From the NCBI GenBank assembly GCA_964507075.1, contig CAZDOL010000023.1, positions 1 through 5,161 of the forward strand: a DNA stretch of 5,161 nucleotides, in the 5' to 3' direction. Positions 1 through 5,161 of this stretch are shown here, one piece after another. The notes beneath the pieces are model-generated. The model searched no databases and was not told the DNA's origin. It worked only from the letters and a program-made list of their open reading frames with translations. Every line of letters begins with the position of its first letter. The first letter of the stretch is position 1. The position numbers and the translations under genes were made by a program. This stretch comes from an uncultured Gammaproteobacteria bacterium (GTDB lineage: Bacteria > Patescibacteriota > Patescibacteriia > UBA2591 > UBA6264).

Positions 1-925
1 TACGTTCCCAAAAATTAAAATCTTCAGTAATAATTTTTATATCTATTCCTTGTTTAGCTTTTTTAATAATTGCTTGGGAGATATTTTTGTCAGTAGCTTG
101 CCAGATAATTATTTCAATATTTTTTTGAGCGCTTTCTATTAAATCAATAATTTTTTGATTGATTGAGTTATTTTGAAATCCAGGGCTAAACCAAACATCT
201 AAGAAGCAATCATTATATGTAATATTTTTTAACCATGGCTTATAGTTTTTGTTCCGCAATTTTTTAGTTCCGTTAGTATTTTGTTTTAATAAATCAAATT
301 CAAAACCGTATGCCTGAATGATTTCAGAATCTGTGGTTACAAACAAAAAGCTGGGGTCAAAAGCTTCTTGTAGTGTGGTCCAATTTAATGAGCCAGTAAT
401 AAGTTTTTGTTGAGGCGTTCCTCTGTCTATAATAACAAATTTATGATGCATATTTGGATTTGATTTTGTAGCGCTTTTGCCTGGGTCAATTCTTTTAATA
501 TTTTCAGGCAAATCTGCAAAAACAATATTGTGTTGTTTGCTTTTATCAATATCTAAAACAAGGATTATTTGAACGCCTTTTTCATTTGCCTTATATAATT
601 TATCTCTTAATATTTCTAAGTTAAACGAATACATTGCTATTTCAATGCTTTTTTCAGCATTGTCTATGGCCTTACTAATAGTATTTATAAATTGATTAGT
701 TTGAAATTCATTATTAAAATAAACCGCGCCTTCCATATTTCTATCTACTTTAATTTTTTGAGAAGATATATAGTCAGGCAGATTTGATTCTAAAAGCCGT
801 AAAGATGTTAATTTATTAGACAAAAAAATAAGAACCATTGCAAAGCAAATAAAATAGGCGATTATCTTAATAATCTTTTTTTTATATCTTTTATATTTTC
901 TCAATTTTATCCTCAGAAATGACAT
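1..925 (-). CDS. Phospholipase D (HKD) superfamily protein with a basic N-terminus and a single membrane anchor; 3' end cut by the window edge
   Basis: Not in the supplied ORF track because it runs off the window. Hand translation of the minus strand from ATG 925..923 gives MSFLRIKLRKYKRYKKKIIKIIAYFICFAMVLIFLSNKLTSLRLLE..., open to position 1 (308 codons + 1 nt), with an in-frame TAA just upstream of the ATG. The HKD motif 'HHKFVIIDRGTPQQKLITGSLNW' is encoded at ~383..448. It is preceded by the PLD-type 'AIDNAEKSIEIAMYSFN...EKGVQIILVLD'. A second PLD-type repeat starts at ~198 and runs leftwards ('VWFSPG...IIDLIESAQKNIEIIIWQATD...GIDIKIITED'). Alternative starts are TTG 904 and ATG 838, but ATG 838 would cut the hydrophobic helix. 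Confidence 0.75.
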   Translation of the reverse strand, partial: MSFLRIKLRKYKRYKKKIIKIIAYFICFAMVLIFLSNKLTSLRLLESNLPDYISSQKIKVDRNMEGAVYFNNEFQTNQFINTISKAIDNAEKSIEIAMYSFNLEILRDKLYKANEKGVQIILVLDIDKSKQHNIVFADLPENIKRIDPGKSATKSNPNMHHKFVIIDRGTPQQKLITGSLNWTTLQEAFDPSFLFVTTDSEIIQAYGFEFDLLKQNTNGTKKLRNKNYKPWLKNITYNDCFLDVWFSPGFQNNSINQKIIDLIESAQKNIEIIIWQATDKNISQAIIKKAKQGIDIKIITEDFNFWER

Positions 926-2630
926 ATTTTTGATTATAAGTGATTAAAGAATTTTCCTTAGTGGCTAATAAAATTATTATAGAATCAGATAATTTTTCAG
1001 CCATAATTTTTAAAATTTCATTTATTCTTTTTTGGTTTAAATCAACCCACAGATTGTCAATCACAATTATAGCTGGTTTATTTACCAAGCAATAAGCTGC
1101 TTCTAATGCAAATAAATGAACTGGGTTTAATGTTATGGTTTGGCAATTCTCAGCAGTGAATTTTCTAAAAGAAAGAATGAAATGGAGCGGCGGGCATTGA
1201 GATATAACTTGAAAAACTTTTTCAATGTCTGATTGGTTGATGTTTTCTCTATTTTTGCCTGTTAATATTTCTCCAACATTTTTTTCAGAAGTTAGCTGGG
1301 GTTCTATAAAATAAGCATTACGGAATTTTGTTTGCCAATCATTATATAAATAACGTTTTTCGTTCGCTTTAACTATCCATGCCTGATTATTAAAACGTCC
1401 CATACAAGATAATAAATATCCTAAATGCGTTTTTCCAACGCAACTTTTTCCTGAAATTAAAACTCGGTCTTTAGAATTGAATTCTAAGTTGATGTTTTTG
1501 ATATATTTTCCCAACCAGAATAATTTTGTTTTTTTTGTTTTAAAAGTGATTGAAGATATTTTTTTAATTATATCTTGACGACTTTTGTCTTTTTGTGGCT
1601 CGGGCAAAGAAAGAATAAGCCCTAACCTCGCAGGCAGAATAAAGAGTCCTATTTTTAAACTGGTATAGAACAATCTTATTAAGTAAATAAAAACAATTCC
1701 AGAAATCAGCAGGTTGTCAACTTGGATTTTGAGAAAAAAGTCAGGAGTATATATTCGCATTATATAAGAAAGTCCGACTACTAAAATCAAGATACCAAAA
1801 ATAATTCTATTGCCAAAAAGAAGCCAAATTTTTCTTCTAATTCTAAAGTGCGTATCTAATTTAACTAATTCGTCTAAGGTTTGGAGATTTTCTTTTTCTA
1901 ATTTGTGTTTTTGGATAAAGGGGAGTTCATATAAAGAAGAGGTGATGTGCTTGATGATTTTGGAATAAAGTGTTGTTTCTTTTGTGACATAGTGTTTGGC
2001 AATATAGTAACCAATAAGGGCGAGTATGATATTAACGGGTATGGCTAGCAAAATAATTATTAGCAGAGTGCTGTTAATAAAAGCGCTAATAATCAGCAAA
2101 CCAAGAACATATAAAGCCCATTGCATTAAGCCAATAACGCTGTTGTCCAGCCCCATTTGCAACAAAGGAAGATGGTAGGATATTTTGGCTATTAAGCTGG
2201 CTTTATTCTCAGAAGTTACTTTGTGGAAGGGCTTATTGGTAAAAATTTTAATCCATTTCCTGCGCAAATCATTTATGAGATAGATAACTAAACTTTTCCC
2301 TATTTTAAGTTCCCAAAAGGCAATAATAATATAAATTATTACGCCTCCTATTAAAACGCAGAGGGCTATGGTCATTTGTTTCCATTGCAGAAGAACGCTT
2401 GTTTTGAATAAATGACTACGAGCAAATAAGGGCAAAATTACTTCCAGAAGAATTTGGCAAAAAAGAAGAGATAAGAAAATAATAATTTCTTTTTTGTGGC
2501 CACGAGCAAATGATTTCAAATATTTGAGATGAAATTTTTCCAATTTTAATGGTCTATTTGCTTGCCTAATCTCTGCTTTTTGTTGATACAAATAAATTTG
2601 CGATTTTTTTTCTTCCATGATGGACATCAA
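891..2630 (-). CDS. ABC type-1-exporter-like fused transmembrane domain + nucleotide-binding domain protein; the NBD is degenerate
   Basis: ORF track, 579 aa. About six hydrophobic helices lie in aa ~48-340 (e.g. IIIFLSLLFCQILLEVILPLF, MTIALCVLIGGVIIYIIIAF, VIGLMQWALYVLGLLIISAF, LLIIILLAIPVNIILALIGYYI, IIFGILILVVGLSYI, ISGIVFIYLIRLFY). There is a long cytoplasmic-loop pattern 'DLRRKWIKIFTNKPFHKV...SLIAKISYHLPLLQ', typical of ABC_membrane domains. In the C-terminal NBD, Walker A 'GKSCVGKT' (1428..1451) and a Q-loop-like 'EPQ' are present. The signature position reads 'LNPVH' rather than LSGGQ (1116..1130). Walker B reads 'IIVIDN', so the catalytic Glu is Asn (1053..1058). The H-loop position reads 'LLATKE', with no His. 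The track's first codon at 2630 is TTG; ATGs follow at 2627 and 2618, so the exact start is uncertain. Confidence 0.8.
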   Translation of the reverse strand: MMSIMEEKKSQIYLYQQKAEIRQANRPLKLEKFHLKYLKSFARGHKKEIIIFLSLLFCQILLEVILPLFARSHLFKTSVLLQWKQMTIALCVLIGGVIIYIIIAFWELKIGKSLVIYLINDLRRKWIKIFTNKPFHKVTSENKASLIAKISYHLPLLQMGLDNSVIGLMQWALYVLGLLIISAFINSTLLIIILLAIPVNIILALIGYYIAKHYVTKETTLYSKIIKHITSSLYELPFIQKHKLEKENLQTLDELVKLDTHFRIRRKIWLLFGNRIIFGILILVVGLSYIMRIYTPDFFLKIQVDNLLISGIVFIYLIRLFYTSLKIGLFILPARLGLILSLPEPQKDKSRQDIIKKISSITFKTKKTKLFWLGKYIKNINLEFNSKDRVLISGKSCVGKTHLGYLLSCMGRFNNQAWIVKANEKRYLYNDWQTKFRNAYFIEPQLTSEKNVGEILTGKNRENINQSDIEKVFQVISQCPPLHFILSFRKFTAENCQTITLNPVHLFALEAAYCLVNKPAIIVIDNLWVDLNQKRINEILKIMAEKLSDSIIILLATKENSLITYNQKYVISEDKIEKI

Positions 2631-3828
2631 GATAATATTTATATAAAGAAGGTATTTTTAAGTGTTTTAATTTTTCTTTGAGCAGGCGTTGATTGTGGGG
2701 GGAGTACTTGCCAAAAAAATATTTAGTAATAATGCGCATGAATTTTTCAGACAATTTTTTTATTTGCTGGTCATTGTTTACTAATATTTTTTGAGAAATG
2801 ATTTGGAGAAATTGGTTGTTTATATTGTCTTCTTTTTGAAAAAGTGTTTTGCGCAAGTACTTGATTTTTTGATAATTATTTCGTGGTTTATGTCCAAGCA
2901 AAGTAGTTCTCCAATAACTGATAGTTTTTTTAATGAAATTATCTTCTAAGCTGATTATTTTGTTATTAAAATTATATCCTAAAAAATTAAACTCCTGATT
3001 GGTTGCGATTAGCTTACTTTTTTCTTTTTTGATTTTTAATTTTAGTTTTTTTATCTCCTGGAGCGTGTAATGAAATAAGGCCTCTAATTTTTCTTTATTT
3101 TTATCCATTAATATTATATCATCACCAATCCTTCGGTAAAGAGACACTTTTTTTCCGAGATACTTATCTAAATCGTTGAGATATAAATTAGCGAATAAAG
3201 CTATTAAGGGAACGCCCTGCACAACGCCAATTTTGGGGCGATAAAGTTTTTCGTCTTTATATACAGCATTATAAATAAATAATTTTAAAAGTTCTATTAC
3301 TGTGTCTGGCAAGCCAATTTCTTGGAGCTTTTTAATTAATATTTTTTGGTCAATGTAGTTTGAGTAATTTGTTAAGTCCAATATTAGGGCATTGTCTTGG
3401 TCATAATAGCGTTGATATCTCCTAACAACACTGCGCCCAGCATAATAGCTGGGGTGAGAGGAGCGATACGAGAATAAAAAGGGGGAATAATTGGCTTCAA
3501 AAATTGGTTCAATGATTTGATAAATAGCTTGCGCTTTAATTCGGTCTTTGATGGTATAAATATATATATCGCGCAATGAACCGTCTTTTTTGGGAATATA
3601 GTGGCAGAGAGCAGGGCTAATTGCTTTTTTTTGCTTGAGTTCAATTTGGAGTTCTGAAATTATTTTGTCTGCTTTGTGAGCAATGTTGTCAATCTTAGAG
3701 CCATCTATGCCTGTATATCTGGAAATCCTGGCCCCTTCTTCAAATTGTTTTATCAGGGCTAAATAGGCCTTTTCTATGTTGGTGGTATTTAATATTTGAT
3801 TGTATAAGTCGTTTTTTTCAGCAGGCAT
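2566..3828 (-). CDS. Reverse transcriptase, free-standing, group-II-intron-like (RT plus thumb/X-like region only)
   Basis: ORF track, 420 aa. Motifs read from the translation: RT0-like 'YTGIDGSKI'; motif 1 'HYIPKKDGSLRDI'; motif 2 'IKDRIKAQAIYQIIEPIFE'; 2a 'FSYRSSHPSYYAGRS'; motif 3/A 'ALILDLTNYSNYID' (D151); motif 4/B 'GVVQGVPLIALFANLYLNDLD'; motif 5/C 'YRRIGDDIILM' (D236-D237 at 3118..3123); motif 6 'LKIKKEKSKL'; motif 7 'FNFLGYNF'. A ~130-aa Lys-rich C-terminal region follows, with no endonuclease or other recognisable domain. An in-frame TAA one codon upstream of ATG 3828 fixes the start. Confidence 0.9.
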   Translation of the reverse strand: MPAEKNDLYNQILNTTNIEKAYLALIKQFEEGARISRYTGIDGSKIDNIAHKADKIISELQIELKQKKAISPALCHYIPKKDGSLRDIYIYTIKDRIKAQAIYQIIEPIFEANYSPFLFSYRSSHPSYYAGRSVVRRYQRYYDQDNALILDLTNYSNYIDQKILIKKLQEIGLPDTVIELLKLFIYNAVYKDEKLYRPKIGVVQGVPLIALFANLYLNDLDKYLGKKVSLYRRIGDDIILMDKNKEKLEALFHYTLQEIKKLKLKIKKEKSKLIATNQEFNFLGYNFNNKIISLEDNFIKKTISYWRTTLLGHKPRNNYQKIKYLRKTLFQKEDNINNQFLQIISQKILVNNDQQIKKLSEKFMRIITKYFFGKYSPHNQRLLKEKLKHLKIPSLYKYYLDVHHGRKKIANLFVSTKSRD

Positions 3829-3865
3829 ATTTTAAAAAAATAAAAACCCTTTGTTTGAGGTTTTT
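3829..3865 (-). terminator. Weak terminator- or attenuator-like hairpin plus U-run immediately upstream of the RT start codon
   Basis: The minus-strand RNA reads 'aaaaacc-tcaaacaaag-ggttttt' (7 bp, only 2 G-C; plus 3842..3848 pairs with 3859..3865), followed by 'atttttttaaaat' and then ATG 3828. The layout is terminator-like, but the stem is very A-U rich. Confidence 0.25.
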
Positions 3866-3900
3866 GATATTAAAAAAAATAAAAATATTGTTTCCATAAC

Positions 3901-3926
3901 ATAGTATGTGCCAAACGGCATACTAT
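3901..3926 (-). other. Local stem-loop within the leader
   Basis: 'atagta-tg-tgcc aaac ggca tactat': tgcc/ggca (4 bp) plus atagta/tactat (6 bp), with a 2-nt bulge and a 4-nt loop. It abuts the 3' half of the long-range helix (3894..3901). This is the best-supported single structure in the spacer. Confidence 0.5.
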
Positions 3927-4049
3927 TAATTAAATCAATTTGAGACGCCCCTGGGTTGTCATTATTCTTTCGCTTATTTAAGCTGGTGTTAGACAGCAAG
4001 TTAACAAATAAGCCTCAGAATTTTTAACACCTCTATTTATGAGATAGAG

Positions 4050-4079
4050 TTGTTATGGTTTAGTAATATATGTTATAAT
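4050..4079 (+). promoter_or_regulatory. Candidate divergent promoter for the plus-strand gene
   Basis: On the plus strand: -35 'TTGTTA' (4050..4055), an 18-nt spacer, then an extended -10 'TGtTATAAT' (4071..4079). The two -10 hexamers on opposite strands overlap at 4078..4079, inside the near-palindrome TGTTATAATTATAGCA (4071..4086). Confidence 0.4.
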
Positions 4080-4107
4080 TATAGCACATATTATTGAGAA
4101 GTGTTAA
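4078..4107 (-). promoter_or_regulatory. Candidate sigma70-type promoter for the leader/RT operon
   Basis: On the minus strand: -35 'TTAACA' (4107..4102), an 18-nt spacer, then an extended -10 'TGcTATAAT' (4086..4078). Predicted TSS is ~4069..4071. Confidence 0.45.
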
Positions 4108-4127
4108 TTATTTATCCACAATTGTAT

Positions 4128-5161
4128 ATGTTTCTTAAGAAATTCAAAAAACAGGAACATAATTTTAGTCCAGCTTTTGTTATTTTGGTTATAATAGTAG
4201 CTGGATTTTTTATTTATGAAAAAACTAGCCATGAACCTGTGGTTTCTTTTCCCGTTGAGCCAGAAAGGGTTGAGCAGCAGGCGATTAGAGAGATTATTGA
4301 ACCAGAGCAGGAGATAACAAAAGAGCCAGAAAAAAATATTCCCCAACCAACTCAACGTAAATTAGATAATGGACTTTTTACAGCTACCTTTACAGATGGG
4401 TTTTCCAGTCAGGCATGGTTAGATGTTGGACAAACTGATTTGTATTTTGATTGGACTAGCACAAACTTGCTTTTTCCGATTTCTATGACCACGCAGGAAA
4501 TTGGGATACAAGATTTTCCGGGGTTAACTCAACATCCTGAGGAAGAAAAAAATGATGACATTTTGGCTTTACCGCAGATAGCTGAATTGGTGGCTGAGAA
4601 GAATCCCAAACAAGTAGCCGTTGTTAGAGCTCAGGGGCCAAATACATATATGATTGGATTAGCGCAAGAAAAAGCGTTTGAAATATGGGAATATAATTCA
4701 AAAAGCAAAGAGATTAAATTGTTGTTGGGAAAAACAGCGGAATATTCTGGACACCTTGCTTTATTGTCACGTGATAACAGTGTTTTTGTTTTATGGTCTA
4801 GTTATTTTACTTTAGCTTATGAAATAGATAATAATAGAGCGACAAAGGATTTAACCAATGATTTTGGCTGGAGGGTTTCTTCTGATAATGCCGTTAAACT
4901 TTATGAAATTAATGATTTTATTTATATTATCAATGAGGACGGTTTAATTATTCGTTATAATGATGAGATAAGCGTAAGGATTGACCAAGAATTTTGGTTT
5001 ACATATCAACCAGAATTTTTAAAAATAGCAGGCGATTATTTAATAGCAAAGGTGCCAAATGGGGGAGAGAAAATTTATCAATTTGAGGACAGGGGTTTTA
5101 ATTTACAAGGAACGAGGCAGGTTGTTTCTAAAAAAGTGAATTTTTCAGTTAAAAATGTTGG
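4128..5161 (+). CDS. Hypothetical membrane-anchored protein (N-terminal TM helix, acidic linker, uncharacterised domain); 3' end cut by the window edge
   Basis: Not in the ORF track because there is no stop in the window. Hand translation from ATG 4128 gives MFLKKFKKQEHNFSPAFVILVIIVAGFFIYEKTSHEPVVSFPVEPERVEQQAIREIIEPEQEITKEPEKNIPQPTQRKLDNGLFTATFTDGFSSQAWLDVGQTDLYFDW..., open through 5161 (344 codons + 2 nt). An in-frame TGA lies at 4095..4097. Alternative starts are GTG 4101 and TTG 4122. I recognise no catalytic motif. Confidence 0.7.
   Translation, partial: MFLKKFKKQEHNFSPAFVILVIIVAGFFIYEKTSHEPVVSFPVEPERVEQQAIREIIEPEQEITKEPEKNIPQPTQRKLDNGLFTATFTDGFSSQAWLDVGQTDLYFDWTSTNLLFPISMTTQEIGIQDFPGLTQHPEEEKNDDILALPQIAELVAEKNPKQVAVVRAQGPNTYMIGLAQEKAFEIWEYNSKSKEIKLLLGKTAEYSGHLALLSRDNSVFVLWSSYFTLAYEIDNNRATKDLTNDFGWRVSSDNAVKLYEINDFIYIINEDGLIIRYNDEISVRIDQEFWFTYQPEFLKIAGDYLIAKVPNGGEKIYQFEDRGFNLQGTRQVVSKKVNFSVKNV

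Follow-up and report, generated by a model that had tools for sequence, protein, structure and literature searches.

A lineage of group II-type reverse transcriptases with a [VI]GDD active site, encoded with a structured RNA and two predicted membrane proteins mainly in Patescibacteria

The DNA analysed here, a stretch of 5,161 nucleotides (nt; hereafter the window) that is contig 23 (CAZDOL010000023.1) of a 613-kb, 92% complete genome, encodes on its reverse strand a reverse transcriptase (RT), preceded by a conserved structured non-coding RNA (ncRNA) and followed by genes for an ABC-exporter-like protein and a PLD/NucT-like protein (Table 1). The RT gene is single-copy in this genome, and its product matches the Pfam RVT_1 model at E 1.7e-20 over residues 78-287. 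An initial annotation of the window had described a group II-like RT free of any intron, and its reading of the gene itself largely stands. The RT0-like 'GIDG' that it had noticed is present (residues 40-43) and pairs in a profile alignment with the 'GIDG' in RT0 of the GsI-IIC RT, motif C does read R-I-G-D-D, an endonuclease domain is correctly said to be missing, and the 3′ end of the gene shares 65 nt with the next open reading frame (ORF). Motif B of the protein is QGVPLIA, and the non-coding gap 5′ of the gene measures 272 nt (3829-4100). As to the intron, a scan of the window with Rfam at E<=1, group II intron models included, matched no family, and the search for a ribozyme on larger contigs, which the initial annotation had proposed, found none at the gathering threshold in 11 related loci, which extended to at most 13 kb with no more than 6 kb of flank per side. 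The window likewise contained no tRNA, no CRISPR array and no repeat resembling a template/variable repeat pair.

Table 1. Features of the window and, where a locus number (L) is given, of related loci, with residue counts at active-site positions of the RT family and of outgroup RTs.
Feature	Location	Strand	Details
RT ORF	2566-3828	(-)	420 aa, intact; RT0-RT7, three-helix thumb, apparently D-like C-terminus
Motif A 'DLTNYS' (D151-S156)	3361-3378	(-)	catalytic Asp, invariant Tyr155, Ser156 at steric-gate position
Motif C 'YRRIGDD' (residues 231-237)	3118-3138	(-)	G235 codon at 3124-3126
RT position 235 ('x' of YxDD)			family G155, C1 (n=156); outgroup A70, G8, S6, C3
RT position 234 (Tyr of YxDD)			family V137, I11, C3, M3; outgroup Y70, F14
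RT position 156 (steric gate)			family S76, T50, A13, F12, Ser/Thr/Ala in 139/155; outgroup F 85/87
RT position 155			family Y152, F3; outgroup F43, Y39, C5
RT position 204 (motif B Gln)			family Q95, T39, A7, S5; outgroup Q 81/88
RT D151, D236, D237, K80, R86, R122			family invariant or nearly so (D151 155/155); kept in outgroup
Conserved structured ncRNA	~3889-4060	(-)	covariance models, covariation, fold z-score
Tandem ncRNA copies	L005:2566-3074; L011:935-1331; L025:5576-5898; L027:5533-5932; L062:5404-5799		covariance model R2
Weak A/U-rich hairpin and U-run	3834-3865	(-)	between ncRNA and RT start; minimum-free-energy and centroid folds
Promoter-like site	4078-4107	(-)	TTAACA, 18-nt spacer, TG-extended TATAAT; ~18 nt 5′ of ncRNA
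ABC-exporter-like membrane protein	891-2630	(-)	transmembrane and nucleotide-binding domains (TMD, NBD); weak ABC_membrane and NBD matches
Membrane-anchored PLD/NucT-like protein (predicted)	2-925	(-)	PLDc_2 4.8e-24; ends at contig edge
Full-length PLD examples	L003:8907-10400; L004:8868-10337	(+)	
Multi-copy genomes	L032/L042/L046 (assembly CAYOAT01); L024/L041; L008/L018; L010/L028; L011/L014		
Divergent ORF	4101-5159	(+)	353 aa in window; one N-terminal hydrophobic helix
DGR-type RT genes, same genome	L066:1498-2535; L068:1345-2568	(-); (+)	contigs 19 and 25
C-type-lectin/FGE-like target ORF	L068:2989-3438	(-)	near DGR RT
Sister-lineage RYGDD RT	L082:1795-3222	(+)	high-GC soil metagenome contig
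Canonical ABC exporter	L082:3223-5076	(-)	intact ABC_membrane and ABC_tran

The RT belongs to a sizeable family. A word-indexed search returned more than 120 full-length relatives of 400-430 aa with 38-88% identity, and when 1.84 billion cluster representatives were searched exhaustively with a profile, 379 proteins came out at E<=1e-30. Family members scored between 608 and about 240 bits, with the bulk of intron-type RTs at about 140-160 bits. Residues were counted in 156 proteins scoring at least 260 bits on the family hidden Markov model and in 89 outgroup RTs (group II and CRISPR-RT). The catalytic Asp triad is invariant among family members and every residue needed for catalysis is kept, so that the RT looks catalytically competent. 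Around these residues, the pocket for the nucleotide sugar and the primer end is rebuilt across the family: [VI]GDD stands in place of YADD, the gate Phe has become Ser, Thr or Ala, and conservation of the Gln in motif B is relaxed. The Gly before the Asp pair, whose conservation the initial annotation had singled out for checking, is found in 155 of the 156 members. According to the paper on the G2L4 RT, 'all RTs' carry F/YxDD, some bacterial families have I, V, M, H, S or R where YADD has its Ala, with Gly unlisted, and an A/I swap moves activity between primer extension and end-joining (10.1101/2022.03.14.484287). By this standard the [VI]GDD motif is unusual, and the swap bears out the earlier statement that the residue before the Asp pair matters for activity.

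Motif A of the window RT aligns without gaps to that of the GsI-IIC RT and places Ser156 opposite F143, which we take to be the steric-gate Phe of that enzyme, a role reportedly assigned to it by Stamos and colleagues in 2017. With smaller side chains at positions 156 and 235 the sugar pocket should be larger, which in turn suggests a relaxed or altered choice of nucleotide. The altered handling of substrate or primer that the initial annotation had read from motif C alone can thus reasonably be inferred, with added strength from the changes at the steric gate and the motif B Gln. Substitutions at the gate of retroviral enzymes, such as F155V in the RT of Moloney murine leukaemia virus and those at Y115 in the RT of human immunodeficiency virus 1, permit the incorporation of ribonucleoside triphosphates (rNTPs), and by analogy the discrimination of the family RT against rNTPs could be relaxed.

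Carried further, these features could describe a cellular RNA-dependent RNA polymerase (RdRP) of group II ancestry, that is, an RT-fold enzyme without ribonucleotide discrimination whose rebuilt pocket would take rNTPs or non-standard nucleotides and make from the ncRNA an RNA copy, or a mixed or modified polymer, acting through the ABC-like and PLD proteins. An xGDD motif C is the mark of viral RdRPs, a precomputed match to Pfam RdRP_1 (PF00680) exists for several homologues, Gly replaces Ala beside the catalytic Asp, 90% of members have Ser, Thr or Ala where the gate aromatic would be, and the retroviral precedents just mentioned count in the same direction. However, this reading seems unlikely to us. 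The window RT has no RdRP_1 match at E<=0.01, its fold and remaining motifs are of RT type, motif A lacks a second Asp and motif B the RdRP-type Asn, some members keep the gate Phe, and the adjoining invariant Tyr155 may itself be the gate. As a viral-type RdRP in the strict sense the protein was rejected, only the GDD of motif C fitting that class.

The predicted structure places the protein nearest to group II intron RTs. An AlphaFold2 model built from a 34-sequence alignment (predicted local distance difference test score 90.5, predicted TM-score 0.83) found the GsI-IIC RT as its closest structure, with a Foldseek E of 1.7e-20, and in a VIA-align superposition residues 7-404 of the model lay on residues 2-419 of the chain with Z 31.5 and a root-mean-square deviation of 2.7 Å over 377 residues. 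The next matches were G2L4 (Z 28.4), the Eubacterium rectale intron RT, the DGR (diversity-generating retroelement) enzyme bRT, DRT9, LINE-1/R2, DRT2 and retron RTs; all structural matches of the model were RTs. Since the superposition reaches the end of the GsI-IIC RT, where the DNA-binding D domain of that enzyme is located, the family RT appears in the model to keep a D-domain-like C-terminal region, and the earlier statement that it has no DNA-binding extension needs correcting.

Sequence profiles give the same affinity. The group II intron RT/maturase model TIGR04416 of NCBIfam scores the window RT at 148.4 bits, below its 300-bit cut-off, and in profile comparisons with proteins of known structure the GsI-IIC RT reached 128 bits against 40 for the DGR enzyme bRT, 40 for G2L4 (9d4s) and 30 for the retron RT Ec86, in agreement with the kinship to group II rather than to retron or DGR enzymes that had been proposed from the motifs. 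Among PADLOC models the highest scores were 'RT' at 136 bits, RT_UG26 at 99.6, the RT part of RT-Cas1 at 96 and RT_UG17 at 88.6.

The phylogenetic position was estimated from 87 sequences and 401 columns by an IQ-TREE quick search under LG+C20, with 30 family rows, 23 rows from 19 intermediate-scoring proteins, 32 outgroup RTs and the two DGR RTs encoded elsewhere in this genome as root; support is given as the Shimodaira–Hasegawa-like approximate likelihood-ratio test (SH-aLRT). One clade (SH-aLRT 88) united the TIGR04416-positive intron RTs (383-450 bits) with RT-Cas1 fusions, and another (SH-aLRT 98) held the entire family and 17 of the 23 intermediate rows, most of the scanned intermediates in it having RT_UG26 as best PADLOC model at 157-185 bits per RT unit. 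In this quick search the family therefore falls outside the bona fide intron RTs and maturases, an outcome in favour of the initial annotation, which had left this placement to a phylogeny. Along the second clade motif C passes from RYADD or RYCDD in tandem RT-RT fusions through RYGDD (P0163, P0168, P0207 and P0173) to R[VI]GDD in P0157 and the family. The family is thus shown to be a distinct lineage that shares ancestry with group II intron RTs and stands beside 'UG26-like' RTs. The fusions at the base of the clade, P0158, P0159, P0167 and P0172, are metagenomic proteins of 740-858 aa with two complete RT units each and mostly YADD or YCDD; UG26 is the best or second-best PADLOC model for the first three of them.

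A mobile intron RT/maturase was accordingly rejected, on the lack of a ribozyme, the 148 bits against a cut-off of 300, the R[VI]GDD motif, the separate clade and the maturase signature GWxxY[YF], which a regular-expression search found in most intron RT rows of the tree and in none of the 30 family rows. The remnant of such an element, a decayed group II intron whose ribozyme has been lost or is unrecognisable, would account for intron RTs being the best matches in both sequence and structure and for a length and domain order like those of a class IIC protein. It is nonetheless hardly credible: across the more than 150 members (38-88% identity) the catalytic residues are invariant and synteny is conserved, the window and the 11 larger loci match no ribozyme model, the signature is missing from every family row, the family lies outside the intron RT clade, and the RNA upstream, about 170 nt long, resembles no Rfam family, group II intron models included.

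The term group II-like (G2L) is apt as a description, the RT being free-standing, nearest to group II intron RTs and without intron RNA. The named classes G2L1-5 date from 2008, when each was based on 2-6 sequences, and the one compared, G2L4, is at 40 bits not a close relative. UG26 is the top UG model for the window RT in PADLOC, yet its score lies below those of the group II model and of PADLOC 'RT', and with both DGR RTs of this genome reaching 90-92 bits on that model the match is unspecific; among 400 Patescibacteria genomes nothing exceeded 125 bits. Mestre et al. (2022) kept proteins whose E-value for a UG/Abi profile beat those for other RT profiles, and described UG26 as 35 members, sometimes with an adjacent YcjD/Vsr-like gene and with ABC or PLD partners unmentioned (PMC9226505). 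The window RT would be excluded by that inclusion rule, the group II model scoring higher. The family is therefore not shown to be UG26, and it may be a sister to UG26-like RTs.

A CRISPR-associated RT was discarded as well: the window has no cas genes or arrays, the RT-Cas1 fusions fall in the other clade, and a Cas1_IIIb match on the window RT is confined to the RT part of that model. The protein was also rejected as a DGR RT, its motif B being QGVPLIA and not [LIV]GxxxSQ and the window containing no long near-identical repeat. The same genome does encode two DGR-type RTs elsewhere, both with an IGNLTSQ motif B, YADD or YVDD, and an adjoining Avd-like gene of 116-117 aa.

The region 5′ of the RT, about 300 nt that the initial annotation had taken for a spacer, encodes a conserved pseudoknotted ncRNA. 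Nearly all loci leave 250-350 non-coding nt at this position, unusual for such compact genomes, and an alignment of the upstream regions revealed helices with compensatory changes. A covariance model made from three sequences (R1) located the ncRNA directly 5′ of the RT in 10 further loci. In the alignment fitted by the model 90.8% of cells are paired and 29 of 33 pairs have changed on both sides, a level that 0 of 500 shuffles reached; in a plain MAFFT alignment of the 5′ half that was not fitted to any structure (A10), the pseudoknot helix is 98.5% paired, and 6 of its 6 pairs are compensatory. A second model, of the 5′ half (R2), matched in 46 of 64 sources, and 51 of its 53 matches lie just 5′ of an RT on the same strand. 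The fold has a z-score of -3.25. It is closed by a helix in which 4052-4058 pair with 3894-3900, and it contains a hairpin on the 5′ side, a long stem-loop, a variable region and, on the 3′ side, a hairpin tipped by GCC-GUUU-GGC; the pseudoknot is formed by the apical loop of the long stem-loop pairing with an upstream strand (GUGUUA/UAACAC). The ncRNA matched no Rfam family.

An RNA closed by a long-range helix and lying ahead of an RT and two accessory genes, of which one is nuclease-like, recalls the order of a retron with msr-msd RNA, RT and effector genes. A divergent retron is, however, very improbable, since the retron RT models of PADLOC give at most 36 bits and Ec86 only 30, no Rfam retron RNA was detected, and the pseudoknotted architecture is unlike msr-msd; the class was rejected on the same scores and the lack of a retron RNA match.

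Further signals surround the ncRNA. The promoter-like site upstream has 11 of 12 consensus matches plus the TG extension and was identified as a consensus match only; within 4064-4093 a 19-nt near-palindrome covers the -10 regions of two divergent promoter-like sites. The weak hairpin between the ncRNA and the RT start lies below the G-C threshold of the terminator scan and is kept with a CCC/GGG stem in L003, the closest relative; it is inferred to be terminator- or attenuator-like. Five loci, those with gaps of 620-925 nt, carry the 5′ domain of the ncRNA in tandem duplicate 5′ of the RT.

The genes downstream are conserved as well. A scan of one genome per species (185,579 genomes), with all ORFs in the loci clustered, yielded 63 loci, and the host bins are mostly Patescibacteria with a few Omnitrophota, Gemmatimonadota and Bacteroidota. 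The RT, an ABC-like protein of about 570 aa and a PLD protein of about 400-490 aa follow one another as overlapping ORFs in 60 of 64 loci; the ABC-like gene comes after the RT in 62 and the PLD gene is present in 60 of them, and in four divergent loci the ABC/PLD pair still adjoins the RT on the opposite strand. Far from the lone 'domesticated' RT that had first been proposed, the enzyme is part of a conserved module of ncRNA, RT, ABC-like and PLD.

The ABC-like protein keeps the G/K/[TS] of Walker A and the Asp of Walker B, the catalytic Glu is Asn in 46 of 58 relatives, and neither an LSGGQ signature nor the H-loop His occurs among them; judged from its motifs, with those for hydrolysis missing, this partner would be unable to hydrolyse ATP. 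The PLD protein, which matched a NucT-like model below its cut-off, begins with a basic stretch followed by one hydrophobic helix and is predicted to be anchored with its N-terminus inside and its domains outside. Its two lobes are asymmetric, lobe 1 having HxKxxxxD and lobe 2 HxHxxxxD (Lys to His) in 6 of 6 relatives inspected, and just one canonical HKD motif occurs in 56 of 57 full-length relatives.

Beyond the trio the neighbouring genes vary and include pilin-like, cupredoxin, ECF sigma factor, HlyD, ABC and NusB genes. In the window itself the divergent ORF opposite the module has no Pfam, NCBIfam or PADLOC match and probably lies outside the module, because it is common only to L003 (cluster 23). 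Some small genomes carry the whole RT-ABC-PLD cassette in 2-3 divergent copies. Among 300 other sampled genomes of the phylum, only one had a match at E<=1e-20 (25% identity), and plasmid and phage collections contained no family member, only intron and retron-labelled RTs at <=31% identity. A metagenome query with three sister-lineage RTs gave four close relatives, one with usable context (L082). There, in a single case, an RYGDD RT abuts a canonical ABC exporter gene convergently, and no PLD gene follows.

This arrangement bears on two further explanations. The first is a stand-alone, domesticated group II-like RT for DNA repair, like G2L4, with unrelated neighbours. The enzyme is indeed free-standing with a group II-like fold, and the 'x' of its YxDD is substituted as in G2L4 (YIDD), but strict linkage through overlapping ORFs to the ABC-like and PLD genes, and to the ncRNA, makes such a role very improbable. 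Moreover, G2L4 scores 40 bits on the family profile, below DRT9 or DRT2, and an enzyme matched in just one of 300 other genomes of its phylum would be an odd repair enzyme.

The second is a module for the cell envelope or nucleic-acid traffic, for instance scavenging or export of nucleic acids at the surface of these cells, which are episymbiotic and auxotrophic for nucleotides; the RT would then make or process the cargo. A NucT-like PLD predicted to expose its domains, a partner with an exporter fold, neighbours that are often pilin-like or other envelope genes, and the sister-lineage RT next to a canonical exporter are all compatible with it. We regard it as a serious contender, though an unlikely one. 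The match in one of 300 genomes speaks against a trait central to this way of life, the presence of several divergent copies in one genome is easier to reconcile with defence, and active transport is doubtful for an ABC-like protein without catalytic Glu and signature.

Taken together, the reading that we prefer, with a probability of roughly 60%, is that the RT is the polymerase of a four-part module formed by the pseudoknotted ncRNA, the RT, an apparently non-hydrolysing ABC-like protein and a PLD predicted to be anchored in the membrane. The module occurs here and there in Patescibacteria, members of the candidate phyla radiation (CPR), and in a few other lineages, and it is probably an accessory system of the defence type, as its patchy and multi-copy distribution suggests. 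In DRT2, DRT3, DRT9 and DRT10 the RT copies a short template within an ncRNA (10.64898/2026.04.29.721553). The present RT may likewise bind its upstream ncRNA and use part of it as template and/or primer, as in retron and DRT2/3/9/10 enzymes, and the product or the ribonucleoprotein itself could then control or feed the membrane pair.

Several observations weigh against this picture. The flanks are ordinary or envelope-related, without defence islands or mobile-element genes. Phe stands at the steric gate in 12 of 155 members, some with 'YFD', so that the gate change is not obligatory for the family, and the invariant Tyr155 beside it could assume the gate role. Furthermore, the quick-search tree lacked labelled references for retron, Abi and UG RTs, and SH-aLRT is the one measure of support for its placement of the family.

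No published description of an RT with an ncRNA and two membrane proteins of this kind was found in the searchable literature; Pfam, NCBIfam, PADLOC and Rfam gave nothing on the family beyond generic RT matches, and a 2026 RT-census preprint contains no mention of it. In retrons, DRT2, DRT3, DRT9 and DRT10, an RT with its own ncRNA has each time made a different and unexpected product. To these the present lineage adds an active site that differs from the 'universal' F/YxDD not only in both variable positions but also at the steric gate. It further adds an effector pair that was not found described with any RT, composed of a pseudo-ABC exporter and a PLD predicted to face outwards from its anchor, and its hosts are ultra-small CPR bacteria, about whose accessory biology very little is known. 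The family offers a direct test of the role of the YxDD 'x' and the steric gate in substrate choice by group II-type RTs, with a bearing on RT engineering and on the origin of RdRP-like 'GDD' sites from RTs. Should the use of rNTPs prove true, the series YADD, YGDD, VGDD would be a living case of an RT drifting towards an RdRP-like 'GDD'.

Among known systems, the class IIC group II RTs (GsI-IIC, PDB 6AR1/6AR3; E. rectale and R. intestinalis) are the best profile matches at 127-128 bits, and the family shares with them the RT0 'GIDG', the order of RT1-7, the thumb, a length of about 420 aa and the lack of an endonuclease domain. It differs from them in having no ribozyme and no GWxxYY, in R[VI]GDD for RYADD, in Ser, Thr or Ala for F143, and in its own 170-nt ncRNA, ABC and PLD partners and separate clade. 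UG26 comes in through the nearest outgroup RTs, P0157, P0163, P0173 and P0174, for which it is the best PADLOC model at 157-185 bits. The G2L4 RT of P. aeruginosa (YIDD), acting in microhomology-mediated end-joining repair, is likewise a free-standing group II-type enzyme in which a conserved substitution at 'x' tunes activity, but it reaches only 40 bits on the family profile and retains its Tyr, and we know of no dedicated ncRNA or membrane partner genes reported for it. The RTs of DRT2, DRT3, DRT9 and DRT10 carry a canonical YxDD, which for DRT10 is YVDD to judge by a 'YVAA' mutant of that enzyme, and DRT9 structures rank high among the fold matches of the RT model. DRT10/UG17, a system of ncRNA, SLATT effector and RT whose UG17 model gives the window RT its 88.6 bits, has another ncRNA and a SLATT protein in place of the ABC-like and PLD pair; the two are nevertheless alike in joining an RT to its own upstream structured ncRNA and to a membrane effector.

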